DNA of 64,000 nt from Spirochaetia bacterium (lineage in GTDB: Bacteria; Spirochaetota; Spirochaetia; SZUA-6; Bin103). Below the pieces are notes generated by a model that worked only from the letters and a program-made list of their open reading frames with translations, searched no databases and was not told where the DNA came from. Position 1 is the stretch's first letter. Each line of letters starts with the position of its first letter. A program made the position numbers and the translations under genes. Below, piece by piece: positions 1 through 57,824 of this stretch. Location of the stretch: NCBI GenBank assembly GCA_965203055.1, contig OZ241863.1:4257813-4321812 (forward strand), in the 5' to 3' direction.

Positions 1-106
1 TCCCGCGGACGAATGCCATTGCCCCGCCTGTCTATCGAGATCGATCCGAAGAACCTGACACTCGCTGGCTCGACGCAGGCGCCCTCTGCTGGATTGTCGC
101 TCGGTT

Positions 107-169
107 CTCATCCTGATTGTCGCGCTACAGGTACTCCTGCCGCCAGTTCGCGCGTCACTACCGTGCCTG
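107..169 (+). repeat. Upstream element, copy 1 (second copy at 2893..2966)
   Basis: The 40-nt core at 130..169 (GGTACTCCTGCCGCCAGTTCGCGCGTCACTACCGTGCCTG) matches 2927..2966 at 37/40 positions, with weaker similarity extending 5'. Both copies lie 50-70 nt upstream of a start codon (239 and 3018). The sub-motif GCGTCACTGCC also occurs in the ~300-bp repeat family. Confidence 0.75.
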
Positions 170-179
170 AAGCGTGCGC

Positions 180-209
180 TTGACCGATGGCCGCGCGATC
201 AGATATGGT
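180..209 (+). promoter_or_regulatory. Sigma70-like promoter candidate for the ATPase gene
   Basis: TTGACC (180..185), an 18-nt spacer, then TATGGT (204..209), 30 nt upstream of the ATG at 239. The -10 hexamer is the same as in the repeat-borne promoters. Confidence 0.45.
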
Positions 210-238
210 CGGCCCCACTGGATGGAGGTCGGTGCTCG

Positions 239-1375
239 ATGATAAAGAAGATACGCATCGAAAATTACAAGTGCCTCGTCAATTTCGACCTGGAGCTTGA
301 CGAGTTGTCCCTCTTGCTCGGGCTGAACGGAGTTGGCAAGACCGCGGTGCTCGATGTCGTATTCGCACTGCGCCGCCTGCTCTCCGGCGACGCGCGGTTC
401 ACCGATGCGGACGTGTTCCCGACCCGGACTCTGACCGGCTGGCAGAGTCGTGATCTACAGGTGTTCGAGCTCCGGGTGCTGCTGGCGGCGGAGACGTTCA
501 CCTACCTGCTCGAAGTGGAACATCAGCGGGAGACCCGCTTGGCGCGGATCGGCCGCGAACGGCTGGACGTGGACGGAACGACGTTGTTCGAGTGCGTTCA
601 AAACCAAGTCCAGCTCTATGACGACGATCCGGACGACAGAGAGGTAAAGAAAGGACCAACTTTTACTACCGATTGGAGAGAATCGGCCCTGGCTCGCGTC
701 GTCCCTGTGTCCCATAATCAACGCCTTACCCGCTTCCTGGATTATATGAGGAACATACTCGTCTGCGACATCCAACCTCGGGGGATGAAGACCGAGGCGG
801 CAGCCGAGAGTCCGTTGCTGGACCGGGACGCCGGCAACTTCGCCGATTGGTTCCGGCACATGCTCCCGGAACATCCGGAGCTGATTTCCGATTTGAATAA
901 TGAGCTCACCGAGGTAATCGGGGGCGGGTTCAGCAGAATGTGGCTGAAGAAGGTGAGCGATGAGGTTCGTGCCCTGATGGTCGATCAGATAGGCGCCAAA
1001 TCCGGTGTCAAGTATGATTTGCGAATCGATGAGATGTCCGACGGCCAGCGCGCCCTGATGGTCTTGTACGGTCTGATCCACTTGACCCGAGGCCAGGGCT
1101 ACACGCTGCTGATCGATGAACCTGAGAACTACGTTGCTCTTCGGGAAATCCAGCCTTGGCTGATGAGCCTCGAGGACGCCTGCGGAGATACCCTGCCACA
1201 GGTAGTGATAGCCTCCCATCATCCTGAGCTGATCGACCACCTGGGAAGGGAGAACGGCATTCTTCTGCAACGCGGAACGTCGGACGAGATAACGGCGCGC
1301 CGACTCGATACCCGCGAAACCGAGGGCGGTGTGGAGCTCTCCGAGCTGTTCGCGCGAGGGTGGGAAGCTGAGTAG
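239..1375 (+). CDS. ABC-type AAA ATPase (AAA_15/AAA_21-like, OLD/AriA-type)
   Basis: 378-aa ORF with Walker A GLNGVGKT, signature-like SDGQRAL, Walker B TLLIDEPENY and H-loop-like IASHHPELI. Confidence 0.85.
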   Translation: MIKKIRIENYKCLVNFDLELDELSLLLGLNGVGKTAVLDVVFALRRLLSGDARFTDADVFPTRTLTGWQSRDLQVFELRVLLAAETFTYLLEVEHQRETRLARIGRERLDVDGTTLFECVQNQVQLYDDDPDDREVKKGPTFTTDWRESALARVVPVSHNQRLTRFLDYMRNILVCDIQPRGMKTEAAAESPLLDRDAGNFADWFRHMLPEHPELISDLNNELTEVIGGGFSRMWLKKVSDEVRALMVDQIGAKSGVKYDLRIDEMSDGQRALMVLYGLIHLTRGQGYTLLIDEPENYVALREIQPWLMSLEDACGDTLPQVVIASHHPELIDHLGRENGILLQRGTSDEITARRLDTRETEGGVELSELFARGWEAE

Positions 1376-1391
1376 AAGAAAGTCGCAAATA

Positions 1392-1922
1392 GTGCTGCTG
1401 TGTGAAGACAAGCAGCAATCGACGTTCGTCTACCGCTTCCTTATCGAGATGGGATGGAGAAAGGATCAGATTCGAATACGGTCCGCCAAACCAGGGAAGG
1501 GCTCTGCGGAAGAGTTTGTACGAAACCGTTTCCCCAAGGAGCTCAACGAACACCGGGCTCGCCCTAGTCTTTCGCGGGCTCTGATGGTGATGATGGACGG
1601 CGACAACCGCGGGATTAACGGCCGCATGGCTGAACTTGCCGGCGAGTGCACGAAAGCCGAAACGAGCCCCAGAACTCAGAAAGAACAGGATGTTCTCGTA
1701 TTCATACCCACTTGGCGCATCGAAACCTGGTTGGCCTATCTGGACGGCGAAGCAGTCGACGAAGCGAAGCGAGATTACCCTCGTTTGCGACGGCCGAGAG
1801 ATTGCGCTCGGCACGTGGACACTCTCGTCGAGATGTGTCGTGATAAGGCGCTTCGGAAGCCGGCGCCGGCGTCTCTGGCTGCCGCCTGCCACGAATACCG
1901 CCGCTGGCCCGATTCCGCTTGA
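1392..1922 (+). CDS. Small Toprim-like partner protein (DUF4276/RloB-like), hypothetical
   Basis: Lies in ORF frame 1329..1922, with a probable GTG start at 1392, 17 nt after the ATPase stop. VLLCEDKQQ (conserved Glu) and MVMMDGDNRG (DxD) resemble a Toprim metal site. The family name is from memory, not a search. Confidence 0.55.
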   Translation: MLLCEDKQQSTFVYRFLIEMGWRKDQIRIRSAKPGKGSAEEFVRNRFPKELNEHRARPSLSRALMVMMDGDNRGINGRMAELAGECTKAETSPRTQKEQDVLVFIPTWRIETWLAYLDGEAVDEAKRDYPRLRRPRDCARHVDTLVEMCRDKALRKPAPASLAAACHEYRRWPDSA

Positions 1923-2169
1923 ATCGCCCGATGCGGGCGTGACGGCCGGGAGACCAAGCTCGAAAGACGATCGGCGAAAGGCGACGGTAGGGTCCGAGGA
2001 ACAGCGCCCGCGCGGGCGCGCCGCGCGCGGCCTCCCGCTTCGTCGCAGGAGCATGGAGAGGAGCGAAGGCCGGCTTGAAGACCGCGCTCAGAGATCGAAT
2101 CGCGACCGAGCGTCACCGAGCGGGTAAAGGTAGGTGATCCATCAAGGGCGGATCGAAGGACGGCGGACC

Positions 2170-2499
2170 GAAGGATGAAACCGACGGTCTCCTCTACGTC
2201 TTCGCGACGACGCGGGATTGCGTCAAACCGTGCAGCTGCGCCTACTGTTTCCTCGCATCAGAGCGCAGTCAGGAGCCTTCCTCGTTTCGGCGCACGATGG
2301 TAGGTTCGATTTCGAGTGCAAGGATAAGAATAGCCGGTACCGAGCGGACAAATATGACGTGCCTTACAACTACTACCGATTGACGGTGAAGGCCGAATGC
2401 AAGGAATCGATTCTGAAAGAACTGGAGTCTCTGAACATCTCGAGGGAGACTCTGTTCCCGGGGCTGGAATCATCCGCCAAGGCGATCGTCGATGCCTAG
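2170..2499 (+). pseudogene. FRG-domain protein gene fragment (retains the C-terminal part)
   Basis: LYVFATTRDCVKP is encoded at ~2192 in one frame. After an apparent ~340-bp deletion, ORF 2218..2499 ends ...YYRLTVKAECKESILKELESLNISRETLFPGLESSAKAIVDA, a typical FRG-family C-terminus. It is paralogous to 3985..4490. Confidence 0.5.
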
Positions 2500-2502
2500 T
2501 AA

Positions 2503-2826
2503 GCTCGGTCCGGCAGGTGCTGCGGCGGATCATCGGCTTGCTGCCACTTGCCGCGCCGGCTGCTGAGCAGAGATGACCGCCCTGTTCGGCGGCCGCCTTC
2601 GCCAACGCGCGCCGCGTCACTGCCGATCACCTGCAGATGATGGCGCCGTGCCGTCGTATGAAGCAGGATCACCACGCACGATCCTCTCAGCGGGCGCCTC
2701 GCCTCGTTGCCCCCGCACGGCCGCCGCAACCTGAAGGGGCATGGCGCGCCATCGACCTGACCGTCCGGCCCTGAGTCTTGCCCGGCCGCGCGCGCCGCGG
2801 TATGGTGAATGAGGAGGCACGGACCC
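2503..2826 (+). repeat. ~300-bp promoter-bearing repeat, copy 1
   Basis: Aligns along its length with 4485..4802 and 6277..6570. Indels break every reading frame between copies. Confidence 0.9.
2778..2806 (+). promoter_or_regulatory. Repeat-borne sigma70-like promoter, copy 1
   Basis: TTGCCC (2778..2783), a 17-nt spacer, then TATGGT (2801..2806). The module is identical in all four repeat copies. Confidence 0.5.
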
Positions 2827-2892
2827 CTTGGCAGCGCAGCACGACGCGGCATGATGCGCGTCCAGCCGTTCATCAGCACCGACTGATCAAAG

Positions 2893-2966
2893 CATCCTGC
2901 CCTTCTCGCACAGGTCCCGCGGCGGCGGTACTCTTGCCGCCAGTTCGCGCGTCACTGCCTTGCCTG
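2893..2966 (+). repeat. Upstream element, copy 2 (see 107..169)
   Basis: 37/40 identity of the core to 130..169. It ends 52 nt upstream of the Uma2 ATG at 3018. Confidence 0.75.
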
Positions 2967-3017
2967 TCGCGCCGCCGCGCCGCGTGCTATGCTGCGCAGC
3001 GTCTGGAGGCGTGGTCG

Positions 3018-3710
3018 ATGGCAAGTTCACTCAGCGCTCCGCTGGCGGCGCCGGTAGCGGTAGAATACCCCAGTTCCGACGGCAAGCCGATGGCTGAAAG
3101 CGATTCCCAACGGATACCTCTGACGTACGCCGTCGACCGGCTCCGGTACCACTTCCGCAACCACGCCGACGTGTACGCCTCCGGCAACCTGCTGATCTAC
3201 TACGAGAAGGGGAGTCCGGGCGCGAGGGTGGCGCCGGACGTGTTCGTGGTGTTCGGTGTCCCCAATGTCGAGCGCTCGTCGTACCGGCTGTGGGAGGAGG
3301 GGAAGGGACCCGACTTCGTGCTGGAGATCACGTCGCGGGCGACGTGGCGGGAAGATCAGACCAAGAAGCGGGAGTTGTATCGGCGGCTGGGGGTACGGGA
3401 GTACTGGCAGTACGATCCGACGCGGGACTACCTGAAGCCGCCGCTGCAGGGGTTGGAGTTGGTGGGGGAAGATTACGAGCGGCTGCCAAGCCGGGATTTG
3501 GCGGACGGCACCCTGGCGCTGCGGAGCGAAGTGCTGGGATTGGAGTTGCGTCTGGCCGGCCGGCGGCTGCGGTTCCACGATCCGCAGACCGGAGAGGACC
3601 TGCCGGACTTGGCGGAGACCGAAGACCGACGCCGTGAGGCGGAGGCTCGCGCGGAGGCGGCCGAAGCGCGCTTGGCCGAACTCGAGGCTCTTCAGCGACA
3701 ATCAAGATGA
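3018..3710 (+). CDS. Uma2 family endonuclease (DUF820)
   Basis: ATG at 3018 inside ORF 2778..3710. Shows YPSSDGKPMAESDSQ, ...APDVFVVFGV, ...PDFVLEITSRATWREDQTKKRELYRRLGVREYWQYDP (PD-(D/E)xK core) and a coiled-coil tail. The N-terminal ORF extension lies in the repeat and was rejected. Confidence 0.85.
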   Translation: MASSLSAPLAAPVAVEYPSSDGKPMAESDSQRIPLTYAVDRLRYHFRNHADVYASGNLLIYYEKGSPGARVAPDVFVVFGVPNVERSSYRLWEEGKGPDFVLEITSRATWREDQTKKRELYRRLGVREYWQYDPTRDYLKPPLQGLELVGEDYERLPSRDLADGTLALRSEVLGLELRLAGRRLRFHDPQTGEDLPDLAETEDRRREAEARAEAAEARLAELEALQRQSR

Positions 3711-3984
3711 GAATCCACTGCGAACGTCGACCGAACGCCACCGAGCGGGTGACGGTCAAGTGATCCATCAAGAGGGCCGCCCCGGAGTACGGTCACGATC
3801 ACCCCTCCGTAACCCCGCAGGCGGCATAGCTCACGCCACCCCGCATCGCCCAAGACAAGCCGCCATACGCCCCGGCCGATTTTAGTGTCCCGCAAGAGCG
3901 CAGGGAGGCATACATGAAGAAGCCGGAGTACCCGCGGGCGTGGCAGAGAGCCACTACCGCCGCCGAATGTCACACGCTTGAATC

Positions 3985-4490
3985 GCCCTCGATGTGGTCG
4001 GCCAGAAGGACGGCGAGATGTTTGACGTCGGCTTGTTCTTCGCTTGTAACGATTCGAAGCACGATTCGAAGAACGGTTGCCTCTACGTGTTCGCGACGAC
4101 GCGCGATCGCGTCAAACCCTACGACAGCGACGCCGTGAGCATCGTCGCCAACTTCGCTCGACTCCGTAGAAACGAACAAGAGGAGATTCTGACAGAAACG
4201 GAGCAGTTTCTGGACGAACGACGCGCCTTCGTCCGTTCTTCTCACGGCTACCGTATCATGCGCAGGAGCGATGTCAGAGGAGAAGTCGGTGTCTACTCCT
4301 GGCGCTGTCGTATGGATTCCCTGCGCCGGGAGATGGGCCGTCTCCATACCTTCATCAGGCAGGAAAAGCCATACTTCGTCGAGGGTCTGATCGATCCGAG
4401 AGACCTGTTCCGCATCTTCATCGTGCAGCCTCGCCGGCTGTTTCCTCGCCTCAGAGCGCCAATGCGCGCCGAAGAGAACGAGTGCGCTCG
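3985..4490 (+). pseudogene. FRG-domain protein gene fragment (retains the middle part)
   Basis: Encodes ...LDVVGQKDGEMFDVGLFFACND...CLYVFATTRDRVKPYDSDAVSIVANFARL..., then runs into the repeat without the FRG C-terminus. The N-terminus is missing. It shares flanks with 2170..2499. Confidence 0.45.
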
Positions 4491-4802
4491 GTCGGCAGGT
4501 GCTGCGGCTGATCGTCGGCCTAGTGCCACACCACCGCGCCGACTGCCGAGCAGAGCTGACCGCCTTGTTTCGGCGGCGGCCTTCGCCAACGCGCGCCGCG
4601 TCACTGCCGATCACCTGCATGGCGCCGTGCCGTCCGATGAAGCAGGACCACCACGCACGATCCTCTCAGCCGGCGCCTCGCCTCGTTGCCCCCGCACGGC
4701 CGCCGCAACGTGAAGGGCCATCGCGCGCCATCGACCTGACCGGCCCTGAGTCTTGCCCGGTCGCGCGCGCCGCGGTATGGTGAGTGAGGAGGCACGGACC
4801 CC
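4485..4802 (+). repeat. ~300-bp promoter-bearing repeat, copy 2
   Basis: Aligns with copies 1 and 4. It ends with the promoter module, GAGGAGG, and the ATG of the next gene. Confidence 0.9.
4753..4781 (+). promoter_or_regulatory. Repeat-borne sigma70-like promoter, copy 2
   Basis: TTGCCC, a 17-nt spacer, then TATGGT. The SD GAGGAGG is at 4786..4792 and the ATG at 4803. Confidence 0.55.
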
Positions 4803-5228
4803 ATGGCGCTCACCGATACTGACCTGCAAGTCGTGGTCGAGCATGTCAAGCGCATGCTGCCGGCCATGCTGATCGAGACCGCACCCCTCAGCCATCTTCA
4901 GGGTGACGCATCCGCAACAGCGCCCGGCAACTACGCCGAGGAGCACTTGGCGCGGTTCGAAGAACGCACGGCGCAGGAGTTCAAGGCCCTCCGCGAGTTG
5001 ATGCAAGCGGGCTTCGCGGCGGTGGACAAGCGTTTCGAGGACATGAACAAGCGTTTCGAGGACATGAACAAACGCTTCGAGGAGATGAACGCCAACATCG
5101 ACAAGCGCTTCGCGGCGGTGGACAAACGCTTCGAGGACATGAACAAACGCTTCACCGCGATCCAGTGGATGGGCACCGTGGCGTTCGTGGTCCTCGGCGT
5201 CATCATCTCGGTCGTCGGGCTCTCGTGA
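4803..5228 (+). CDS. Tail-anchored coiled-coil protein with NKRFEDM heptad repeats (P141)
   Basis: Strong SD and ATG. Has a ~75-aa N-terminal domain, then DKRFEDMNKRFEDMNKRFEEMNANIDKRFAAVDKRFEDMNKRF, then a C-terminal TM segment WMGTVAFVVLGVIISVVGLS. It is a paralogue of 6571..7092. Confidence 0.8.
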   Translation: MALTDTDLQVVVEHVKRMLPAMLIETAPLSHLQGDASATAPGNYAEEHLARFEERTAQEFKALRELMQAGFAAVDKRFEDMNKRFEDMNKRFEEMNANIDKRFAAVDKRFEDMNKRFTAIQWMGTVAFVVLGVIISVVGLS

Positions 5229-5497
5229 CCAGCACCTGAGCAGAGCTGACCGCCCTGTTTCGACGGCCGCGCCCGCCAACGCGCGCCGTGTCACTGCCGA
5301 TCACCTGCGGATCATGGCGCCGTGCCGTCAGACGAAGCAGGACCATCACAAGCACGATCCTCTCGGCCGGCGCCTCGCCTCGTTGCCCCCGCACGGCCGC
5401 CGCAACGTGAAGGGCCATCGCGCGCCATCGACCTGACCGACCGGCGACCGGCCGGCGCTTGAGCCTTGCCCGGTCGCGCGCGCCGCGGTATGGTGGC
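5225..5497 (+). repeat. ~300-bp promoter-bearing repeat, copy 3 (5'-truncated)
   Basis: Starts within the stop codon region of P141 (TGACCAGCACCTGAGCAGAGCTGACCGCC) and aligns with the 3' ~270 nt of the other copies. Confidence 0.85.
5466..5494 (+). promoter_or_regulatory. Repeat-borne sigma70-like promoter, copy 3
   Basis: TTGCCC (5466..5471), a 17-nt spacer, then TATGGT (5489..5494). Confidence 0.5.
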
Positions 5498-5655
5498 CGA
5501 GGCGCGGATAACCCATGGGCGGATCGGCCACCACCCTGCGGGTGTACGTCTGTTTCCAAGGCGATAGCCTGAAGGCTGGTCTCGTCACCGGGCATCGGCA
5601 GAGAGACGGTTGAACCGGCACCACCCAATACCAGCCGGCAACCGGGGGGCACACC

Positions 5656-6138
5656 ATGGCGGTAATCGACTGGGTAGCGGTAGGAACCCCCATAGTGGCG
5701 ATGGTGGGAATGTTCGGCATGATGCTGAAGGTCCTCGGTTCGCTGAACAAGAGGTTCGACGACATGAACAAGAGGTTCGACGACATGAACAATAGATTCG
5801 ACGACATAAACAGGAGATTCGACGACCTGAAGGACTCTCTGAACAAGAGGATCGATGATCTGGCCACCGGCTTGAACAAGAGGATCGACGATCTGGCCGC
5901 CAGCTTGAACAAGAGGATCGACGATCTGGCCGCCGAGGTGAAAGACATGCACCAAGAGGTCCGTTCGATAGACAAGCGGATGGTTCATCTTGAAGGAAGG
6001 ATGGACAGTCTGGAAGGGCGTCAGAGCAGGGAGCCGGGAGCGATGAGGCCGGTGCCGGTATCTGGTGTGGAGAGACCACTCACCCCACCGCCCCCTTGGC
6101 AGCAGGAGGAAGCGGAGACAGGCGCAGCAGCCCGGTAG
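5656..6138 (+). CDS. N-terminally anchored coiled-coil protein with NKRFDDM / NKRIDDL repeats (P160)
   Basis: N-terminal TM segment VAVGTPIVAMVGMFGMMLKVL, followed by NKRFDDMNKRFDDMNNRFDDINRRFDDL and three 11-residue units (xxxLNKRIDDL). It uses AGG/AGA Arg codons, unlike P141 and P173. Confidence 0.75.
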   Translation: MAVIDWVAVGTPIVAMVGMFGMMLKVLGSLNKRFDDMNKRFDDMNNRFDDINRRFDDLKDSLNKRIDDLATGLNKRIDDLAASLNKRIDDLAAEVKDMHQEVRSIDKRMVHLEGRMDSLEGRQSREPGAMRPVPVSGVERPLTPPPPWQQEEAETGAAAR

Positions 6139-6276
6139 TATCGCCTGCTGCTGGCGCACGTGGCGGAGCGCATGAACCGCAAGAAACGGGAAAGCACAAT
6201 TGCCCTGCCATCTCGCCGAACGGAACAAGAAAATCGGATCTACTGACGACTCCATGAAGTGACGTATTCCCCGTAA

Positions 6277-6570
6277 GTGCTGCGGCCGATCATCGACTTG
6301 CTGCCACGGCACCTCGTCGAGCTGACCGCCCTGTCGGCGGCCGGCGTTCGCCAACGCGCACCGCGTTCCTGGCGATCACCTGCAGATCATGGCGCCGTGC
6401 GTCGGATGAAGCAGGACCACCACGCACGATCCTCTCGGCCGGCGCCTCGCCTCGTTGCGCCCGCACGGCCGCCGCAACCTGAAGGGCATGGCGCGCCATC
6501 GACCTGACCGGCCCTGAGTCTTGCCCGGTCGCGCGCGCCGCGGTATGGTGAGTGAGGAGGCACGGACCCC
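6277..6570 (+). repeat. ~300-bp promoter-bearing repeat, copy 4
   Basis: Aligns with copies 1 and 2. Its 3' end is identical to copy 2 through the SD and ATG. Confidence 0.9.
6521..6549 (+). promoter_or_regulatory. Repeat-borne sigma70-like promoter, copy 4
   Basis: TTGCCC (6521..6526), a 17-nt spacer, then TATGGT (6544..6549). GAGGAGG follows, then the ATG at 6571. Confidence 0.55.
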
Positions 6571-7092
6571 ATGGCGCTCACCGATACTGACCTGCAAGTC
6601 GTGGTCGAGCATGTCAAGCGCATGCTGCCGGCCATGCTGATCGAGACCGCACCCCGCAGCCATCTTCAGGGTGACGCATCCGCAACAGCGCCCGGCAACT
6701 ACGCCGAGGAGCACTTGGCGCGGTTCGAAGAACGCACGGCGCAGGAGTTCAAGGCCCTCCGCGAGTTGATGCAAGCGGGCTTCGCGGCGGTGGACAAGCG
6801 TTTCGAGGACATGAACAAGCGTTTCGAGGACATGAACAAACGCTTCGAGGACATGAACAAACGCTTCGAGGAGATGAACGCCAACATCGACAAGCGCTTC
6901 GCGGCGGTGGACAAACGCTTCGAGGACATGAACAAACGCTTCGAGGAGATGAACGCCAACATCGACAAGCGCTTCGCGGCGGTGAACAAACGCTTCGAGG
7001 ACATGAACAAACGCTTCACCGCGATCCAGTGGATGGGCACCGTGGCGTTCGTGGTCCTCGGCGTCATCATCTCGGTCGTCGGGCTCTCGTGA
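6571..7092 (+). CDS. Tail-anchored coiled-coil protein with expanded NKRFEDM repeats (P173)
   Basis: The N-terminal 75 aa are nearly identical to P141 (PLSH vs PRSH). The repeat block is 32 aa longer and the C-terminal TM segment is the same. Confidence 0.8.
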   Translation: MALTDTDLQVVVEHVKRMLPAMLIETAPRSHLQGDASATAPGNYAEEHLARFEERTAQEFKALRELMQAGFAAVDKRFEDMNKRFEDMNKRFEDMNKRFEEMNANIDKRFAAVDKRFEDMNKRFEEMNANIDKRFAAVNKRFEDMNKRFTAIQWMGTVAFVVLGVIISVVGLS

Positions 7093-7135
7093 CCAGCACC
7101 CGAGCAGAGCTGACCGCCCTGTTTCGACGGCCGCG
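7090..7135 (+). repeat. Stub of the ~300-bp repeat (copy 5)
   Basis: TGACCAGCACCCGAGCAGAGCTGACCGCCCTGTTTCGACGGCCGCGCC matches the start of copy 3, after which similarity stops. Confidence 0.8.
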
Positions 7136-21635: not shown

Positions 21636-22244
21636 TCAGGGTCCCTCGAGCAGCCGCCGCACCGAGCAGCGCAGTTCGGGAAACGCGAGCGGAGTCAGCT
21701 CCCCGCCGGCGGCGGTCATGATCCGGCGATAGCGATAATCGGTCCCGTCGGGGTTGCGGAACACGACGAGCCGCGACTGCTGCAGATCGACCACCCAATA
21801 CTCCGGCACCTGCGACTGCGCGTAGAGGCGCCGCTTCTCCTCCAGGTCCTTGGCCAGGCTGGAATCGGAAAACTCGATCAGCCAGAAGATGTCGCCGGGG
21901 TAGGGATGATGAGCGAGGTACTCGCGACCGAGTGGCCGCACCACGGCGATGTCCGGCTCCGGCTCGGAGTCGTACCCGGGCAGGGTAATCGGGTGGGCCG
22001 GCCGCACCACGGCCTGCCCGCCCACCAGCCGGATCAGATACTCGCCGGCCTCGGTCATCAGGTAGGCGTGAGTCATTCGCTCAGGCGACATCTCGACGAT
22101 TTCCCCGCTCAGCAGCTCTACCGGCCGATCGTCGAGCATGCCGCTCGCGACCATGCGGTGGTAATCCTCCAGCGTCCATTTGGCAAGGGTCACGCTCACG
22201 CCGCCGCTCCGTTCGTCGAAAGACGCTACCCCGCGGCCGTCCAT
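21636..22244 (-). CDS. Uma2 family endonuclease
   Basis: WTLEDYHRMVASGML...VELLSGEIVEMSP and ...PDIAVV...FWLIEFSDSSLAKDLEEKRRLYAQSQVPEYWVVDL. Confidence 0.8.
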   Translation of the reverse strand: MDGRGVASFDERSGGVSVTLAKWTLEDYHRMVASGMLDDRPVELLSGEIVEMSPERMTHAYLMTEAGEYLIRLVGGQAVVRPAHPITLPGYDSEPEPDIAVVRPLGREYLAHHPYPGDIFWLIEFSDSSLAKDLEEKRRLYAQSQVPEYWVVDLQQSRLVVFRNPDGTDYRYRRIMTAAGGELTPLAFPELRCSVRRLLEGP

Positions 22245-26024: not shown

Positions 26025-26735
26025 ATGCAGCCGCTACGGATAGCAACGGTAGAGGACCTGGTCCACGTTTTGGACGAGCACCCGCACTGGCTGGAGGCGG
26101 TGCGGTCGCGGCTGCTCACGCGCGAGTTGCTTGAGCTTCCGCAGAAGCTGGCGGAGTTCGCGGCCGACACCGAGCGCCGATTCGAGACGCTGGAGCGCCG
26201 ACTCGAAGCTCTGGAGCGCCGATTCGAGGCGCTGGAGCGCCGACTCGAAGCTCTGGAGCGCCGATTCGACGCGCTGGAGCGCCAACTCGACCAGCTCCGC
26301 ACCGACGTTGCTCCCCTCAAGGCCGCCCACGCCAGGAACGAGGCCCGGCACGAAGCCGATCTGATGGCGGAAGAGCAGGGTCTCACGCTCGTCCATACCC
26401 TCGACCGGGAAGAGATTCGGGACCTGGTACGATCCTCCGACACCGACGGCATCTCCAAGCACGAGCTGCGCAGTTTTCGCTTGGCGGACATCGTGCTGCG
26501 CGCAACCGATAGTGCGGGAGCGGAGTGCTACCTGGCGGTGGAGGTCTCCTACACCGCCAACGGCCGCGACACCTCTCGGGCACAGCGCAACGCGCGCTTC
26601 CTGACCCGCTTTACCGGCCGGCGCGCGTATGCCGTGGTGGCCGGTCTGCGGTTCGACGAGCGTATTCGCCGCAGCGTGGAGTCAGGCGCGATAGCGTGGT
26701 ATCAACTGGACCCTGAAGCCCTGGAAGTGGACTGA
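26025..26735 (+). CDS. Coiled-coil (RRFEALE heptads) protein with a PD-(D/E)xK-like C-terminal domain, unknown function
   Basis: Six 21-bp units at 26172..26297 encode RRFETLE RRLEALE RRFEALE RRLEALE RRFDALE RQLDQL. The C-terminal ...ADIVLRATD...CYLAVEVSYTANGRDTSRAQRNARFLTRFTG resembles a conserved family I recall from cyanobacteria, Chloroflexi and Thermus. Confidence 0.7.
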   Translation: MQPLRIATVEDLVHVLDEHPHWLEAVRSRLLTRELLELPQKLAEFAADTERRFETLERRLEALERRFEALERRLEALERRFDALERQLDQLRTDVAPLKAAHARNEARHEADLMAEEQGLTLVHTLDREEIRDLVRSSDTDGISKHELRSFRLADIVLRATDSAGAECYLAVEVSYTANGRDTSRAQRNARFLTRFTGRRAYAVVAGLRFDERIRRSVESGAIAWYQLDPEALEVD

Positions 26736-26743
26736 CTTCGACT

Positions 26744-27469
26744 ATGGCCACCCAAACCCGGACCAACGGCTCGGCAGCCGGCGCGGTCGCGCCGGCGCGC
26801 CGCCGTATCATTCCATTCGAGAACGGCGACCGCCTCCCGCGCGGGGAGTTCGAACGGCGCTACCTTGCCCGGCCCGACGTCAAGAAGGCGGAACTGGTCG
26901 AAGGAGTGGTCCTCATGCCGTCCCCGGTGCGCGCCACCCATAGCGAGAAGCATGGCGATCTGTTGGGCTGGCTCCGGTTCTACAGCGCGTCGACCCCCGG
27001 CGTCTCGGTGCTCGACAATGCCACCGTGCGGCTGGATCTCGACAACGAACCCCAGCCCGACGCACTGCTGCGTATCGAGTCGGAGACCATCGGCCGCTCA
27101 CGCATCGACGCCGACGACTACGTGGCGGGGCCGCCGGAGCTGGTCGCGGAGGTGGCGGCAAGCAGCGCCGCGTACGACCTGCATGACAAGCTGCGCGCCT
27201 ACCGCCGCAACGGCGTGCCGGAATACCTCGTCTGGAGAGTCTACGAGCGCGAGTTCGACTGGTTCGTGCTGACCGACGGCGAATACCGGCCGCTGGCGCC
27301 GGACGCCGCCGGGGTCCTCCACAGCCGGACCTTCCCCGGTCTGCGCCTGGCCCGGCGCGCGCTCCTCGACGGCGACTTCACCGCGGTACTCGCCGAACTG
27401 AACCGGGGTCTCGACACGGCGGAACACGCCGCCTTCACCGCCAAACTCAAAGCGCCCCGCTCCCGGTGA
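26744..27469 (+). CDS. Uma2 family endonuclease
   Basis: FENGDRLPRGEFERRY..., AELVEGVVLMPSPVRATH, ...PDALL... and ...PELVAEVAASSAAYDLHDKLRAYRRNGVPEYLVW. Confidence 0.8.
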   Translation: MATQTRTNGSAAGAVAPARRRIIPFENGDRLPRGEFERRYLARPDVKKAELVEGVVLMPSPVRATHSEKHGDLLGWLRFYSASTPGVSVLDNATVRLDLDNEPQPDALLRIESETIGRSRIDADDYVAGPPELVAEVAASSAAYDLHDKLRAYRRNGVPEYLVWRVYEREFDWFVLTDGEYRPLAPDAAGVLHSRTFPGLRLARRALLDGDFTAVLAELNRGLDTAEHAAFTAKLKAPRSR

Positions 27470-27756
27470 CCGGCTCGGTTCCGGTGAAGTACGCTGGCGG
27501 CCGGGTAGCGGCAAGCCCGACGCCGGCGACTCGCTCGCGTCTCACCCGCGCACGCACGTTCTGAACGCCCCCCAGGTGGCCGCATGATCGGGGCTGCGCG
27601 CGTTCTACTGCAGATCCCGCGAAGTGGCTAACTGACGGCGAAATTTAGCTTAGTTCCTTTTCCTTCTTGCCCACGACCTTCCAGTCAGGTTCACGTACCG
27701 ATCAGCAAGCGTATCGACAGAGAGTAACGTAACGCCTCCGTTATTTCGAGTTCTCC

Positions 27757-28642
27757 TTAAAGTTTCCTCGCAACCACGAATACACCGCTTGTCGACAAGT
27801 CACTGTCTCGCATGCCGACGAATCTCCTCGATAGCTCGCTCCTGTGAATAGCCGATACCGTAGATGTCGCGATCTGTGTCTTTACGGTGAAGCCGTATTC
27901 GCGCAACAGATCCATATGGGTCGAGCACGGTTCTCGGTTGATCAAGTACGGTCTTCTACCGCGGACTATCTGCCACAATAGGTCGCTACATGCCCAGTGA
28001 CCATTCCATGCCTCACTCAGCCCATGAGATCTGAAATCGATACGCGGTCGGAAGGTCGTCTACATGCTCCAGCACGGCCTGCGAATAGATCAGGTCAACC
28101 GACTTTTCTTGTATCACAGCGGGGTCTGACCACGGCGCTCGATAGGTAATCATCCGACCTCCGACTATCGCATCTCTTATTCGTTTTACCCGTCGCTCGT
28201 CCAGTGCCTTGTTGAGGAGTTCGTCATGGAGTATCGACGACGGGAAGTCATAATTTTCGAGCAACGGAAAGACTCCCGGAAGCTCATGATCGTTTGGGAT
28301 TCTCGATCGTAGTCGGAATAACTCAACCAACTCGTCAAATACTCGCATATTCTCGTCGACACTGACTTTGTTCACAGCATCAAGGCCATAATATCTAGCA
28401 CATCCCGAAAGCAAGGCGGCTAAGCCGCAGCCGATCGAAGCGCCGGGTCCTAACTCTGCGACCGTCTCCGGAATCCCGTTCAATCCGCAATTCTTCGCGT
28501 GAATCAGGTGCCGTAACCACACTGCGTAAGAATATCTCGCCGATTCTGTTCCACCAACACCACCTTTTCTGAGTGCATCTCGGATGTGTCCGACGAATGG
28601 CAGGAACGTACATAGCCCGTAGACTATCGACTTCGTATTCAC
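27757..28642 (-). pseudogene. Class I SAM-dependent methyltransferase gene, disrupted
   Basis: GTG at 28642, 9 nt after AAGGAG. GGTESARYSYAVWLRHL and motif I VAELGPGASIGCG are present. The ORF stops at 28013 after ...EHVDDLPTAYRF, and the family-typical WNGHW..LINREPCSTHMDLLREYGF continues in another frame (27757..27978). GC is low. Confidence 0.5.
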
Positions 28643-28901
28643 TGTAAGATACTCCTTGAGGTGGTCCCGGTTGATTAGATTAGACAGTCCGAGGGGTAGG
28701 TTAAGGTGTATCCCGTCGGTTGTCAACGACCCCTCCCTCTGCACCCTCTGCAACCCTCTGCAAATCAGGCGGCGGTAAACCGGGGGTGGGGTCCGGGGCG
28801 GGGGTAGCTGTCCCTGTGGATATGTGGACAACTCCCGCTCCGCGGTGCGCAGCCACTCGCTCCGTTCCCGGTGCTTGCAGTTTGCACCCCTCCCCATCTC
28901 G

Positions 28902-29625
28902 CTACGCCACCTGCCCGGCCGGCGCCGCCACGCCGCAGTACGCCTCCGCCGGCGTCCGCCCGTCCAGCGCCGAGTGGGGGCGTACCTCGTTGTAGAACTC
29001 CATCCACTCCGCGATCACGCGCTGCGCCGCGAAGCCGTCCGCCAACTCGTGCAGGTACACCGCCTCATACTTCACAGCGCTCCTGCGCCTGTGCCAACGC
29101 CAGCAGGCAGAACTCGCTGTCCAGCGTATTCGCCAGTTCCCAGGCCAGCACCCGCCGACTCGCCCAGTCCATCACCGCCACCAAGTACAGGTACCCGTCC
29201 TGCACCGGGATATAGGTGATGTCTGCGCACCACACCTGATTCGGTCGCGTAATGGTAAGCCCTCTCAACAGATACGGATACACTTGATGGTCCGGGTTCG
29301 GCACCGTGGTGCGCGGCTTGCGGTAGATCGCCTCCAACCCCAGCAGCCGCATCAGCCGTCGCACCCGGTGGCGCCCCGCCGTTACCCCTTCCCGCGCCAG
29401 ATGCCGGGCCAGCTGCCGACTGCCGTAGAACGGGTACTTCAGGTACAACTCGTCGATGCGGCGCATCAAGCTGAGCGTCGCCGCGCTGGCTCCGCGCGGT
29501 CGGTAGTACAGGGCCGAGCGGCATACGCCGAGCAGCCCGCACTGCCGACTCAAGCTGAGACTCGAATGCTCGCGGTCAACTATCAGCCGTCGTTGCTCCG
29601 GGCTCAGCGATCGAGCCCGCGCGCT
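28902..29625 (-). pseudogene. IS3 family transposase OrfB with internal deletion of the DDE core
   Basis: The N-terminal part (..LSRQCGLLGVCRSALYY..NQVWCADITYIPVQDGYLYLVAVMDWASRRVLAW) ends at 29065. The C-terminal tail (KYEAVYLHELADGFAAQRVIAEWMEFYNEVRPHSALDGRTP) is in another frame and ends at 28902. The middle catalytic region is missing. Confidence 0.7.
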
Positions 29626-29906
29626 AAAAAATCGCGCTCCACGGTCAACTCGCCGATCTTGGCATGGAGGTCATGGATGAGCGCCTCCTGCTCGGTGGGG
29701 CCGCGCTTGGCGGTCGCGGCGAACAGTTCTTCGAGCCCGGTCTGGGCTTGCCGCTTCCAGACGCTGACCTGATTTGGATGAACTTGGTGCTTGGCAGCGA
29801 TCGCCTGGATCGTGCGGTCCCCGCGGAACGCCTCCAGCGCCACCCTGGCTTTGAACTGTGCTGTGAATCGGCGTCGTTTCGTCGCCATCCCCTTGGCCCT
29901 CCTCAT
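29604..29906 (-). CDS. IS3 family transposase OrfA (HTH)
   Basis: KRRRFTAQFKARVALEAFRGDRTIQAIAAKHQVHPNQVSVWKRQA. A slippery TTTTTTA (coding strand, 29625..29631) lies near its end. Confidence 0.8.
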   Translation of the reverse strand: MRRAKGMATKRRRFTAQFKARVALEAFRGDRTIQAIAAKHQVHPNQVSVWKRQAQTGLEELFAATAKRGPTEQEALIHDLHAKIGELTVERDFLARGLDR

Positions 29907-30167
29907 GGCCTGGAATACACCTTAACCTCCTGTCCAATTTTCCGTGACCACCTCACCATTCCTCGCCGGATTGAAGTGGCGAAGCAGGATACAACCCAAC
30001 CAGCTACTGGCTCATTTCTGAGATCAAGCGCCACATTCGCTACTACGGTGGCGAGCATCCTTGTGAGATTCGCTATCATCGCCCCATAATCCTGGGTCCG
30101 TTATGTTAAGGGGTAGGCTCTGGCTCCGGTTGTGATGGCCATGGAAGTTAAGCTAAGCCGCAAGCCC

Positions 30168-30581
30168 TTACGCAGCGACCGAGTTGACTTCGAGGCGCAG
30201 TCCGATGGCGTTCAAGGCGGCTTCCATCTGATCCAGCCGAGAATGGTGATTGACGTTCAACACTCGATCTACTTGCGGCAGATGCCAGCCTAGACGGCGT
30301 GCCAACTCGGCCTTGCCGATATTTTGGTCCCGCATGCCTTGGTACAAGATAACCTTGATAGCGGTAAGTGTCGGAAGTTGGACACAAGTCCCACTCGGAG
30401 TGGGCAGCGGAATATCCTTCCGATCGTGGATGCGTGCGGCGACTGCTTCTTCCAACGCATCGACCGCACGCATCAACGCTTCATCACGATCTTCTCCAAA
30501 CGTCGTCAATTCGGGAAAATCAGGAGCCGTAACAAGCACAGATCCTTCATCGTCCTCAAGATTCACTGTATAACAAAGCAT
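30168..30581 (-). CDS. hicB: HicB family antitoxin
   Basis: MLCYTVNLEDDEGSVLVTAPDFPELTTFGEDRDEALMRAVDALEE..., with a C-terminal HTH (IGKAELARRLGWHLPQVDRVL). ATG at 30581 after AAGGG. Confidence 0.85.
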   Translation of the reverse strand: MLCYTVNLEDDEGSVLVTAPDFPELTTFGEDRDEALMRAVDALEEAVAARIHDRKDIPLPTPSGTCVQLPTLTAIKVILYQGMRDQNIGKAELARRLGWHLPQVDRVLNVNHHSRLDQMEAALNAIGLRLEVNSVAA

Positions 30582-30626
30582 ATTACAAAACACCCTTTTT
30601 CACACTTAGGTAATCGTGCTACAATC

Positions 30627-30815
30627 CTAATCGAGCTCCAGGTCCTTCTTGATCTTAGCTGCAAGTCCCTTACCAAGATCTTTGTCTGATCCGTGCATAG
30701 GTAATTGAGTGACAAAATCATTGCGGCGAACAGTTATGTGTCCGCTTCCACCCTTGTGGGTCTCAAAAGTGCAACCTTGTTTCTTAAGCCATCTCTTTAG
30801 TTCTGAGGCTTTCAT
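30627..30815 (-). CDS. hicA: HicA family mRNA interferase toxin
   Basis: 62 aa: MKASELKRWLKKQGCTFETHKGGSGHITVRRNDFVTQLPMHGSDKDLGKGLAAKIKKDLEL. AGGAGG SD. Confidence 0.9.
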   Translation of the reverse strand: MKASELKRWLKKQGCTFETHKGGSGHITVRRNDFVTQLPMHGSDKDLGKGLAAKIKKDLELD

Positions 30816-30843
30816 TGTCCTCCTTCTAAAGTAGTCTCTCTAT

Positions 30844-30872
30844 ATTGTAGTAGCCGCCCAACGTGAGGTCAA
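30844..30872 (-). promoter_or_regulatory. Near-consensus sigma70 promoter of hicAB
   Basis: On the minus strand, TTGACC, a 17-nt spacer, then TACAAT, ~28 nt upstream of the hicA ATG. Confidence 0.6.
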
Positions 30873-30980
30873 CAGAAATGTTAGGTTTCTTCTACTCGGG
30901 AGCAAATCAATACCGTAAATACCTTTACCGTCGGTTGGGCTGAGCAGACGGGCTGGAGCCGGCGACGTGCGTAGCTCCGG

Positions 30981-31526
30981 TCAGGCCGGGGGCTGCACGA
31001 TGGCCGGGGTGTCGGAGGGGGTGAACCGGACCTCTACCAGGTTGTTTCCGGGACCGCCCCGGTCTATCACCAGAAAGTCGCTCTCGCGGTCGAGGGCGAT
31101 TACCGGGTGGTGCCACACGCCGCGCGCGTAGTTGACGCCTTGGCGGCCGTCGGTCACGAAGGCGCGCAGTTGGCCGGCGTCGGGCAGGGGGCCGGGCGGC
31201 GCAGCCACGATCAGAAACGGGAAGGGGTCGAGCGGGATGAACGCCTGCGATCCCAGCGGGTGATGCTCCAGCACGCGCACCGGGAACGGCACCGGACTCG
31301 GCTGCGCGCGGAACACGTTGATCAGCGGCCGGCCGCCGCCCGCGGCCGCGTCCACCCGCGCCAGGTCGTGAAAGCGCACCGTGGTGCCGTCGTTGATCAG
31401 CCGCCGTTCGGCCCCGGCCGTCTCGATCACCTCCCCGAACGGGGCAAACTCCCGCCGCGTCAGGGGCACCGGCGTGAGGCGGCGCGCCGAACTCTGGCTC
31501 AAGTCAACTCTCCGCCGGGCGGCCAA
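30981..31526 (-). CDS. allA: Ureidoglycolate lyase
   Basis: [14 protein letters not shown]..., [15 protein letters not shown]..., ...[14 protein letters not shown]. The start is uncertain (TTG at 31526 overlaps the upstream stop). Confidence 0.75.
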
Positions 31527-36067: not shown

Positions 36068-37003
36068 ATGGAACACCCTGAGGCGGCGCCGGTAACGCTG
36101 GGCCGCGGCCTGCGGCTGCCGCGCATCGGCCTGGGCACCGGCCTGCACGGCGAGGTGTCGGAGCGCCAGTCGGTGAACACCATCGAGCACGCCCTGCGCT
36201 GCGGGGTGCGCTTCTTCGATACCGCGCCGTTGTACGGCAACGGAGTGGCCGAGGAGCGGCTCGGCATCGCCCTGCGCGGCGTCCCGCGCGACAGCTACGT
36301 GCTGAACACCAAGGTCGGCATCCTGTCCGGCGGCGTCACCGGCGACTTCGTCTACGACTTCAGCGCCGGCGGCGTGGAGCGTTGCTTCGAGCGCAGTCTG
36401 GGCCGGCTGCAGGTGGAGCGCATCGACATCCTGCATCTGCACGAGCCGGAGGGGTTCGCCGATCAGGTGCTGGCCGAGACCCTGCCGGTGGTGACCCGCT
36501 GGCGCGAGCAGGGCTTGATCCGCGCCGTCAGCGCCGGGGTGAACCACTGGCGCTTCGCGGAACCATTCGTGGAACACCTGGACTGCGTGCTGCTGGCGGG
36601 GCGCTACACCCTGCTGGAGCAGGGCGCGCTGCCGTTTCTGGAGCGCCAGCGGCGGGCGCGGCGGCCGGTACTCGGCGCCGGCATCTTCAACAGCGGCATT
36701 CTGGCGACCGGCGCCGGCTCCGGCGCGCGCTACAACTATCTGCCGGCGCCGCCGCCGTTGCAGGAGCGGGCGCGGCGCCTGCAGCAGATCTGCGAGCGCC
36801 ACGGGGTGGAGTTGGCGCACGCCGCGGTGCAGTTCGTTGCCGCGCAGTCGGCCATCGCCGCGCTGATCTTCGGCGCCTGCAGCAGCGCCGAGCTGGACCA
36901 GGCGCTGCGCGGTGCGCGGGCCTCCACGCCGCCGGCCCTGTGGGCTGACCTGCGCGCCGCCGGGCTGCTCGACCCCGCCGCGCCCACACCCGAACCCGCC
37001 TAG
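36068..37003 (+). CDS. Aldo/keto reductase
   Basis: LPRIGLGTG..., VRFFDTAPLYGNGVAEERLG, ...ILHLHEPE. Confidence 0.8.
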   Translation: MEHPEAAPVTLGRGLRLPRIGLGTGLHGEVSERQSVNTIEHALRCGVRFFDTAPLYGNGVAEERLGIALRGVPRDSYVLNTKVGILSGGVTGDFVYDFSAGGVERCFERSLGRLQVERIDILHLHEPEGFADQVLAETLPVVTRWREQGLIRAVSAGVNHWRFAEPFVEHLDCVLLAGRYTLLEQGALPFLERQRRARRPVLGAGIFNSGILATGAGSGARYNYLPAPPPLQERARRLQQICERHGVELAHAAVQFVAAQSAIAALIFGACSSAELDQALRGARASTPPALWADLRAAGLLDPAAPTPEPA

Positions 37004-37152
37004 CCGCCGGAGAAGCCGTGCGTGCATGGCATGCATGGGCATGCATGCAGTCAGTGTTGCCAAATCGCTGATCGGATCGTACGATGAGCGTTACGTTTGG
37101 TTGATCGCGGCGGTGGTGTGGTAACCGCCGCGGCAATCGGAGGAGGCGAGGT

Positions 37153-38148
37153 ATGACGAGACGGAAGGGGCTCCTGGTGTTGCTTGCGCTGCTGGTGCCG
37201 GTGGCGTCGATGTTCGGCGAAGGGGAGAGCGAGAGCGGTCAAGAACTCACTACGGTTACGTTTCGCATGAACTGGAAGTTTTCCGGGCCCCATGCGGTGT
37301 ATCTCCTGGGGAAGGAGCTTGGCTTCTATGCCGAAGAAGGCCTCGATCTGCAAGTTCTGGAAGGGAATGGATCGGTTACGACCGGGCAGCTCGTGGGAAA
37401 CAAATCAGAGGATTTCGGCTTGGCCGACGCGACCGCGTTGATTCCCATCATGGCGCAGGGGCTACCGATCGTATCCGTGGGCATGGTTACGCCGACGTCG
37501 GCGCTGGCTGTAGTTGCCCGCAAGGATAGCGGCATCCGCACCATGAAGGATCTGGAGGGACGGAAACTGTCGGTGACCGCGGGCGACGCGCTGACGCAGA
37601 TATTCCCGGCCGTCATCGCTGCCAACGGGCTCGATGAATCCAGGATCGACCTTATCTACGTCGATGCGGCCGCCAAGATTCCAACGGTGCTGGAGGGAAA
37701 GACCGACGCACTACTTGGCGCAGCCGGCGATCAGAGTGTAATCATGGAAGATCGTGGATTCGAGGTCGTGACCCTGAAGTTTGCCGATTACGGAGTAAAT
37801 ATCCTCAATCTTGGAATCTTCGTTCATCGGGATACCGTAGAAGACAACCCGGATCTGATCCGGCGTTTCCTGCGCGCCACGAAGCGTAGTCATGAAGCTC
37901 TCGACGAGCACTACGACCAAGCCATGGAGCTTCTCGTGGATATCAAGAAGGAACTCAAGGTAGAGGTAGCAAAACAACAGGGATCCGCATACTACTCGCG
38001 TATGGAGTCGACCAATTGTGACGATGCGGAGATACTCTACAACTGTCCGGGAGACTGGCAGATGACGGTTGATATCATGACTACCTATCGCGATCTCGAG
38101 GGCGCCATCGACGCGGCAGAGTTCTATACCAACGAATTCCTTCCGTGA
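37153..38148 (+). CDS. ABC transporter substrate-binding protein (NMT1/SsuA-like)
   Basis: Signal peptide, then FRMNWKFSGPHAVYLLGKELGFYAEEGLDLQVLEGNGS. GC is lower than the flanks. Confidence 0.75.
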   Translation: MTRRKGLLVLLALLVPVASMFGEGESESGQELTTVTFRMNWKFSGPHAVYLLGKELGFYAEEGLDLQVLEGNGSVTTGQLVGNKSEDFGLADATALIPIMAQGLPIVSVGMVTPTSALAVVARKDSGIRTMKDLEGRKLSVTAGDALTQIFPAVIAANGLDESRIDLIYVDAAAKIPTVLEGKTDALLGAAGDQSVIMEDRGFEVVTLKFADYGVNILNLGIFVHRDTVEDNPDLIRRFLRATKRSHEALDEHYDQAMELLVDIKKELKVEVAKQQGSAYYSRMESTNCDDAEILYNCPGDWQMTVDIMTTYRDLEGAIDAAEFYTNEFLP

Positions 38149-38149
38149 C

Positions 38150-38947: not shown

Positions 38948-38950
38948 CCG

Positions 38951-39730: not shown

Positions 39731-39857
39731 TGCCCGACTTCTCCACGCTCAATGAGCAGGACGCGGTGTTCATCGGCGCTGACCGGCGCGGTCGGCAAGG
39801 GTCGTACCGCAAGCGCTGGAGCGGCACCGTGTACCGGGGCCGGCAGGAGGCTTGCCG

Positions 39858-57738: not shown

Positions 57739-57824
57739 CCAACCAGCGCAGGTTGAGTCGAGTCAAGTCTGCTGAGTCTTGTCTTGGCAGGCGCCGCTAT
57801 ACGTGCTATCTTCTTTCATTATCG

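Follow-up and report, generated by a model that had tools for sequence, protein, structure and literature searches.

Genes and gene products

The window analysed here is a stretch of 64,000 nucleotides (nt) from a Spirochaetia bacterium (GenBank assembly GCA_965203055.1, contig OZ241863.1, positions 4,257,813 to 4,321,812), and all coordinates refer to it unless another locus is named. Three small genes on its + strand, encoding the proteins P141 (4803-5228, 141 amino acids (aa)), P160 (5656-6138, 160 aa) and P173 (6571-7092, 173 aa), had been described in a first-pass annotation, made from the sequence alone, as membrane-anchored coiled-coil proteins with opposite anchoring, and the open reading frames (ORFs) were present exactly at these coordinates. 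P141 is a tail-anchored coiled-coil protein, P173 its tail-anchored paralogue with a stalk longer by 32 residues, and P160, encoded between them, an N-terminally anchored coiled-coil protein.

In Kyte-Doolittle profiles, the top 19-residue window of both P141 and P173 was formed by the final 19 residues (score 2.36). The C-terminal membrane helix comprised W122-S141 in P141 (5166-5225, +), with 0 residues beyond it, and, by hydropathy, W154-S173 in P173 (7030-7089, +). With a single helix at the extreme C-terminus, P141 and P173 belong to the topological class of tail-anchored proteins; P160 does not. The stalk repeats occupied 5025-5153 (+) in P141, as KRFEDMN heptads plus a single 11-residue unit, KRFEEMNANID, and 6793-7017 (+) in P173. 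Tandem Repeats Finder reported 21-nt (heptad) arrays at 5026-5153 and 6794-7017, respectively, and in P173 also a 75-nt superunit (2.7 copies). In the predicted monomer structure of P141, a helix (residues 5-26) was followed by a low-confidence linker (27-43), which is probably disordered in both proteins, and a continuous helix (44-140). The part in front of the stalk, originally described as a soluble N-terminal domain, is thus predicted as one 22-residue helix and the low-confidence linker, not as a globular domain.

When the two tail-anchored proteins were aligned, 139 of the 141 residues were identical (two substitutions), and P173 corresponded to P141 with a 32-residue repeat insertion, a 96-nt difference in repeat number. 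The segments 4716-5015 and 6484-6783, which reach from 87 nt before the start codon to 213 nt inside the gene, were 99% identical, compared with ~86% for the full-length copies of the upstream repeat described below; the higher identity of the promoter-gene unit points to recent duplication or gene conversion. P141 and P173 are thus a single gene in two recently duplicated or gene-converted copies. The ratio of non-synonymous to synonymous substitution rates (dN/dS) of P141 was 0.20-0.28 against relatives of 63-89% protein identity, and adjacent repeat units differed solely by synonymous changes (AAG/AAA, CGT/CGC). Arginine codons in the pair were CGC, CGT and CGG, with zero AGR, at a G+C content of 60-61%.

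Architecture and distribution of the tail-anchored family

A word-indexed search with P173 returned 2,303 relatives. Among the 120 best, 105 had a membrane helix as their last element, the median number of residues beyond it being one, which supports the tail anchoring proposed for P141 and P173. Lysine plus arginine residues (K+R) in tail-anchored relatives averaged 3.7 before the helix and 0.26 after it, and neither P141 nor P173 had a hydrophobic N-terminal segment. An alignment of 28 sequences gave the consensus MALxDxDLExIGxYVKxxLxxWLxExAP ... LERxVRVEEELKxQRELMxxGFxAVDKRFE ... KRFxxxQWM followed by the membrane helix, and an R-F pair was nearly invariant among the conserved repeat columns. 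Family members begin with a short amphipathic helix that is closed by a conserved proline. A variable linker then leads to one long helix, composed of K-R-F-E-D-M-N heptads and an occasional 11-residue unit, which continues directly into the C-terminal membrane helix, with a few residues at most beyond it. The heptad register read from the sequence placed F at a, M, I or V at d, N or D at e and R at g.

The family profile was searched exhaustively against 1.84 billion cluster representatives (clusters at 50% identity), yielding 11,749 matches at E<=1e-3, of which 2,523 remained at E<=1e-10 and 181 at E<=1e-30. Many matches spanned the profile from position 1 to 161, the proteins being 100-215 aa long. 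Among species-representative genomes, a scan with a narrower alignment as query retrieved 280 relatives. The closest relative (89%) was found in a metagenome-assembled genome (MAG) labelled Spirochaetia bacterium (OZ241907.1). Genomes contained several copies each, and carriers included Spirochaetia, other bacteria and archaea, other MAGs with the family being labelled Bacteroidetes, Chlorobiota, Methylococcales, Magnetococcus, Thermodesulfatator, Baldrarchaeota and Thermoproteota, together with the cultured Desulfothermus okinawensis. When the head (residues 1-74) was searched by itself, matches were restricted to close Spirochaetia relatives.

Among 50,697 phage records there was one weak match for P173 and none for P160, no relatives were found among IMG/VR viral contigs, and the phage, viral and plasmid collections were essentially without the family; this near-absence argues against an origin from a phage or mobile element.

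Two further observations were made in these searches. The giant proteins P0242 (7,009 aa), P0245 (1,734 aa) and P0243 (1,344 aa), all encoded outside the window, contained up to 31 profile-matching stretches, which indicates that the KRFED-type repeat is also employed in very long fibres. The Pfam accession PF27742 was annotated on many relatives of both gene types, although not on the proteins of the window.

The N-anchored protein P160

The top 19-residue hydropathy window of P160 was residues 6-24 (score 1.83), corresponding to an N-terminal membrane helix, W6-L24 (5671-5727, +), with a predicted N-out, C-in orientation. The helix is followed by a heptad block of the NKRFDDM type (5744-5831, +; 21-nt period, 4.2 copies) and then by a hendecad block of the form xxxLNKRIDDL (5840-5935, +; 33-nt period, 2.9 copies in Tandem Repeats Finder), so that the described change from 7- to 11-residue units was recovered as successive 21- and 33-nt arrays. 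In the predicted monomer structure a single helix (residues 2-123) preceded a low-confidence, proline-rich tail (124-160). For 44 single-span N-anchored relatives, K+R averaged 0.23 before the membrane helix and 3.39 in the 15 residues after it, and the C-terminal flank was the richer one in 43 of the 44. With the caveat that this flank is the K/R-rich repeat itself, the positive-inside rule places the P160 stalk in the cytoplasm, in agreement with the first-pass annotation. Taken over the three proteins, the distribution of charge and the lack of a signal peptide suggest that all stalks are located at the cytoplasmic side of the inner membrane.

P160 had been held not to be a recent copy of its neighbours, and its codon usage was indeed foreign: AGG (nine) and AGA (three) accounted for 12 of its 16 arginine codons at 57% G+C, compared with zero AGR in P141 and P173 and with ~70% G+C and mostly CGC and CGG in the ordinary genes of the window. 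The AGG/AGA bias was common to all P160 homologues examined. The dN/dS of P160 was 0.27 against its homologue at locus L005. Close homologues (74-95% identity) formed only ~15 clusters, all metagenomic, with lengths of 124-165 aa that varied in repeat number, and P160 homologues overall spanned 124-171 aa; the exact P160 sequence was not found in the protein database, the best match being 95% identical. Remoter matches shared the repeats only, and many of them also had an N-terminal membrane helix. P160 is a separate, lineage-restricted protein made of the same kind of repeat as P141 and P173.

In the leader of P160, the repeat-borne start codon opens a 32-codon ORF (5514-5612, +; MGGSATTLRVYVCFQGDSLKAGLVTGHRQRDG), which could be an upstream ORF or the remnant of a replaced tail-anchored gene.

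Upstream repeat and putative promoter

A repeat of ~300 nt precedes a Uma2 gene, P141, P160 (as a partial copy) and P173, and its 31-nt core occurred four times in the window vs zero expected by chance. The copy before P141 (4499-4802, +) contains a putative -35 hexamer, TTGCCC (4753-4758), a 17-nt spacer, a putative -10 hexamer, TATGGT (4776-4781), and the GAGGAGG ribosome-binding site of P141 (4786-4792, +). The same hexamers were located at 6521-6526 and 6544-6549 in the copy before P173 (6277-6570, +) and at 5466-5471 and 5489-5494 in the partial copy before P160 (5238-5495, +), which is without the first ~50 nt. The repeat also provides the ribosome-binding site and the start codon of P141 and P173; for P160, the distance from the -10 hexamer to the start is 161 nt. 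The fourth copy (2517-2827, +), before the Uma2 gene at 3018-3710, has its repeat-borne start codon mutated to TTG. A 35-nt stub of the repeat lies directly 3' of P173 (7100-7134, +) and is identical to the 35 nt after P141 at 5236-5270.

Full-length copies of the repeat were found in close relatives only, and its last 60-80 nt precede tail-anchored and P160-type genes, including solitary P160-type loci. In 12 of 12 aligned copies TTGCCC and TATGGT were invariant, while the sequence of the spacer varied and its length was 17 nt in 11 copies and 18 nt in one. Invariant hexamers around a variable spacer are the pattern expected of a promoter, and comparison of the copies accordingly supports the module as a candidate promoter. 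Of the earlier proposal that each gene has its own repeat-borne promoter, the shared upstream TTGCCC-17-TATGGT module was recovered, and promoter function is supported by this comparison only. A scan for sigma-70 and terminator consensus sequences did not report the module, which agrees with the consensus at 8 of 12 positions (manual count) when nine are needed for the scan. Rfam searches gave no RNA families in the window or the repeat region, and a search of the window for tRNA genes found none.

Genomic context

The stalk genes lie in an island (window 1-7100) of 59-65% G+C, as against ~70% elsewhere in the window, which also holds an AAA_15/AAA_21 ATPase gene with its partner ORF, two FRG fragments and a Uma2 nuclease gene. 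The ATPase (239-1375, +) matched the PADLOC candidate defence models HEC-01A (1.4e-23), PDC-M25A and AriA. No family assignment was found for the overlapping partner ORF (1329-1922, +; 197 aa), and the pair was kept in the islands of relatives. FRG fragment 1 (2218-2499, +) matched residues 281-370, and FRG fragment 2 (3994-4460, +) residues 138-292, of the same intact 393-aa FRG protein encoded at locus L001 (5593-6774); the fragments are out of order, and as a copy of the ~300-nt repeat lies after each of them, the repeat marks rearrangement breakpoints. Besides the island gene at 3018-3710, whose product matched PADLOC PDC-S03 at 4.6e-11, Uma2 nuclease genes were located at 21636-22244 (-) and 26744-27469 (+), and with three in 64 kb the presence of Uma2 beside any given gene is unremarkable here. 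In the syntenic 16-kb island of a relative, NYN, FRG, Ank, ATPase and Uma2 genes were accompanied by tail-anchored paralogues, at least six in number and 109-191 aa long, and the locus of another relative had one tail-anchored and three P160-type genes.

For a survey of neighbours, all ORFs within 4 kb of a family member were clustered at 76 loci from other genomes. No conserved neighbour was found at these loci besides the family itself (99 members at 75 loci) and antisense artefacts. Close homologues adjoined ABC transporter genes, and related Spirochaetia MAGs shared one position beside large conserved ORFs, unannotated, that resemble housekeeping genes by sequence.

These data bear on the possibility that the three proteins serve a defence or abortive-infection system as its membrane sensors or effectors, acting with the adjacent nuclease and ATPase genes. 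The reduced G+C of the island, the defence-model matches of its ATPase and Uma2 proteins, its FRG fragments, the NYN, FRG and Ank genes added among the paralogues of the syntenic island, and the fusion of the same stalk to a PD-(D/E)XK nuclease domain in relatives are all consistent with such a role. It is nevertheless opposed by the lack of conserved neighbour families over the 76 loci, by the frequency of Uma2 genes in this genome and by the transporter and housekeeping-like surroundings of close homologues, and the matches of the three proteins in PADLOC-DB v2 were generic coiled-coil cross-matches only (LeoBC, ZorA, JetC, LmuB and others; best E 7e-8 over a coil segment), below a useful level. 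A defence role is therefore regarded as unlikely, and the link to the neighbouring nucleases that had been speculated upon was not upheld.

Elsewhere in the window, a gene at 26025-26735 (+), directly followed by the Uma2 gene at 26744-27469, encodes a protein of 236 aa in which an N-terminal helix and ERRFEALERRLEAL heptads (21-nt spacing) are combined with a C-terminal domain of ~130 aa. The head and stalk of this protein resemble those of the stalk-nuclease relative P0100 (BLASTP E 4e-10), and its C-terminal domain could be assigned to nothing in Pfam, NCBIfam or the PDB; the protein has the look of a soluble relative of the tail-anchored type. Further blocks of lower G+C were observed at 27000-31000, 37000-40000 and 57000-59000 (51-65% over all blocks), the window otherwise being at ~70%.

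Relation between the two anchor types

P141 or P173 might form a hetero-oligomeric coiled coil with P160 on the cytoplasmic face of the membrane, as the first-pass annotation had considered when it noted that the three could pair. The two types have related repeats (36% identity in an 87-residue alignment, E 3e-19), the TTGCCC-17-TATGGT module is common to both, and the order of a tail-anchored followed by an N-anchored gene was seen again at locus L004. However, helices of P160 and P141/P173 anchored in the same membrane would be antiparallel, whereas R at g and N or D at e suits parallel g-e' contacts, and from coiled-coil rules an antiparallel pair would be expected to juxtapose like charges. 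P160 moreover turns to an 11-residue periodicity and P141/P173 remain mostly heptad. As to co-occurrence, P160-type genes were solitary at loci L005-L007, two closed genomes of relatives with several tail-anchored copies had no close P160 homologue among the 120 matches listed, and among 69 loci that carry a tail-anchored gene in genomes other than this one, none encoded an N-anchored repeat protein within 4 kb. The register, the mismatch of heptads and hendecads and the lack of co-occurrence thus disfavour pairing in spite of the shared promoter type, and we consider it improbable. More doubtful again is a model in which both stalk types, expressed from one shared promoter cassette, would form a mixed, length-tunable lattice under the inner membrane that in this lineage positions or gates the nucleases and ATPase of the island, with repeat number serving as a contingency switch.

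Comparison with known families

P141, P173 and P160 are claimed by no curated Pfam, NCBIfam, PADLOC or PDB entry examined. Scans of the three proteins and 28 family members against Pfam, NCBIfam, PADLOC and PHROGs gave generic coiled-coil cross-matches only. When the family profile was compared with PDB sequences, designed coiled coils and influenza HA2 were returned, and MCUR1, CCDC90B and Tcar0761 were absent among the best 60; Foldseek with the P141 model against the PDB gave nothing with E below 5, and a literature search on bacterial tail-anchored coiled-coil proteins found nothing relevant.

The DUF1640/CCDC90-like proteins (PF07798; human MCUR1 and CCDC90B, yeast Put6/Put7 and prokaryotic homologues) are membrane stalk proteins of prokaryotes and mitochondria (PMC4786415, PMC6801532, PMC7519068). 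They are small and consist, as do P141 and P173, of an N-terminal part, a coiled-coil stalk and a single C-terminal membrane helix, with the stalk on the matrix or cytoplasmic side, like the side suggested for P141 and P173. A stalk ending in a C-terminal membrane helix was found in P141 and P173 and not in P160. Residues 66-169 of P173 aligned to positions 69-171 of 175 of the DUF1640 model, covering the stalk and the membrane-helix end, but the score of 18.7 bits (E 0.0017) was below the gathering threshold of 33.5 bits, and PF07798 was absent among the best 25 Pfam families listed for P141 and P160. The repeat-level relatives P0206 and P0179, which share the 'RFxxLQW + membrane helix' junction, scored 36.4 and 32.1 bits against the same cut-off. 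The beta-layer neck at the beginning of the stalk, of the form [aliphatic]-A-T-K-[polar]-[D/E] and characteristic of the DUF1640 and DUF3782 families, is lacking, ATK being absent from P141, P160 and P173; the motif was present in some repeat-level relatives (P0026, FATKEDI; P0032, VATKDDI). Unlike DUF1640 proteins, P141 and P173 are without a predicted globular head, their membrane helix is the extreme C-terminus, and their stalk is a near-perfect tandem repeat of variable length.

DUF3782 (PF12644) forms the stalks of prokaryotic PD-(D/E)XK nucleases, nuclease-free stalk proteins such as Thermosinus Tcar0761 also occurring in bacteria, and was treated together with DUF1640 by Hartmann et al. 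2016 (PMC4786415); the solved DUF3782-type stalks are trimeric (PMC4786415). A stalk of KRFExxN heptads and a similar N-terminal helix were seen in the relatives P0046 and P0100, which were retrieved with P173 (E 9.6e-28 and 2.4e-22) via RFE[DE]xN[KR]RFE repeats and have an N-terminal stalk of the same type. In P0046 this stalk type is joined to other end modules, DUF3782 and then PDDEXK_10 (PF12644 66.4 bits, PF07788 47.2 bits), and the PF12644 model aligns to the junction that follows the repeats and leaves the repeats uncovered. Neither PF12644 nor a nuclease domain was among the listed matches of P141, P160 and P173, whose ends, a membrane helix or a short proline-rich tail, leave no room for a nuclease domain. 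P141 and P173 differ from DUF3782 proteins further in that nonad and beta-layer repeats are absent and the end module is a membrane helix. The connections being real but partial, the three proteins are regarded here as working like DUF1640/DUF3782 stalk proteins and are not filed as members. The claimed likeness to DUF1640- and XhlA-type proteins without assignment to a family is supported.

XhlA (the haemolysin-like lysis protein of prophage PBSX; PF10779) ends, like P141 and P173, in a membrane helix that comes after a coiled coil, in this case a short one, and a phage-derived, lysis-associated function of the XhlA, holin or spanin type was considered on this account. P173 gave weak PHROG matches to phrog_15851 (2.2e-9) and to the 'hemolysin' phrog_937 (1.9e-4), the latter spanning the membrane helix, and P160 to phrog_1009 (2.3e-10) and an 'Rz-like spanin' (8.9e-6). 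The P141/P173 stalk, however, is much longer and repetitive, PF10779 was missing from the Pfam matches reported for the three proteins, no endolysin or holin was found nearby, and the island is without phage genes and offers no prophage or lysis-cassette context. Together with the near-absence from phage and viral records described above, this makes a lysis function very improbable. That the three ORFs are spurious or decaying products of repetitive high-G+C DNA is scarcely credible, since the long antisense ORFs overlapping P141, P160 and P173 are a usual by-product of such DNA and, even though the exact P160 sequence is missing from the database, dN/dS values of 0.2-0.3 indicate purifying selection on all three, the full tail-anchored architecture is kept across phyla, third-position G+C is 75-87% in frame, and the ribosome-binding site and start codon of P141 and P173 are conserved in the repeat.

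Discussion

P141 and P173 represent a widespread tail-anchored coiled-coil family, and it is moderately likely that its members form parallel, homo-oligomeric cytoplasmic stalks, which would serve as tethers of variable length. With F at a, M, I or V at d, R at g and N or D at e, g-e' contacts are allowed in a parallel bundle. Each of the three proteins would form a parallel homo-oligomer, probably a trimer by analogy with the DUF1640 and DUF3782 stalks, and the stalk would be a passive tether or spacer, fixing how far from the membrane the N-terminal helix (P141 and P173) or the C-terminal tail (P160) is positioned. Slippage or unequal recombination among DNA units of 21, 33 and 75 nt might reset this distance; length variation by repeat number was observed among the paralogues of the relative's island, among P160 homologues and as the 96-nt difference between P141 and P173.

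Several points weigh against this interpretation. The monomer models had low predicted template modelling scores (pTM 0.31 and 0.28), the N-terminal 'head' is small and poorly predicted, and F at every a position is unusual, which leaves the oligomeric state uncertain. The tether role, moreover, is argued from the architecture alone; it rests on form, and we would put it at perhaps one chance in three, the structural statement being much safer.

The proteins described here constitute a well-defined family, which is better seen as a variant on an already known protein type than as a new system. The first reading of their architecture was correct, and its functional speculation was not borne out. 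The family is large (thousands of clusters), has a clean tail-anchored plan and is unnamed in the curated libraries searched. Mitochondria (MCUR1/CCDC90B) and a few structural studies have provided examples of membrane-anchored stalks with the same plan; to our knowledge, the prokaryotic relatives of MCUR1/CCDC90B-type stalks have no known function. Stalk length varies freely among paralogues, and relatives fuse the same stalk to nucleases. If the idea of a tether or ruler is true, the family would be a simple model in which to study the setting of distances by bacteria at the cytoplasmic side of the membrane, and would also provide a new set of bacterial tail-anchored substrates.

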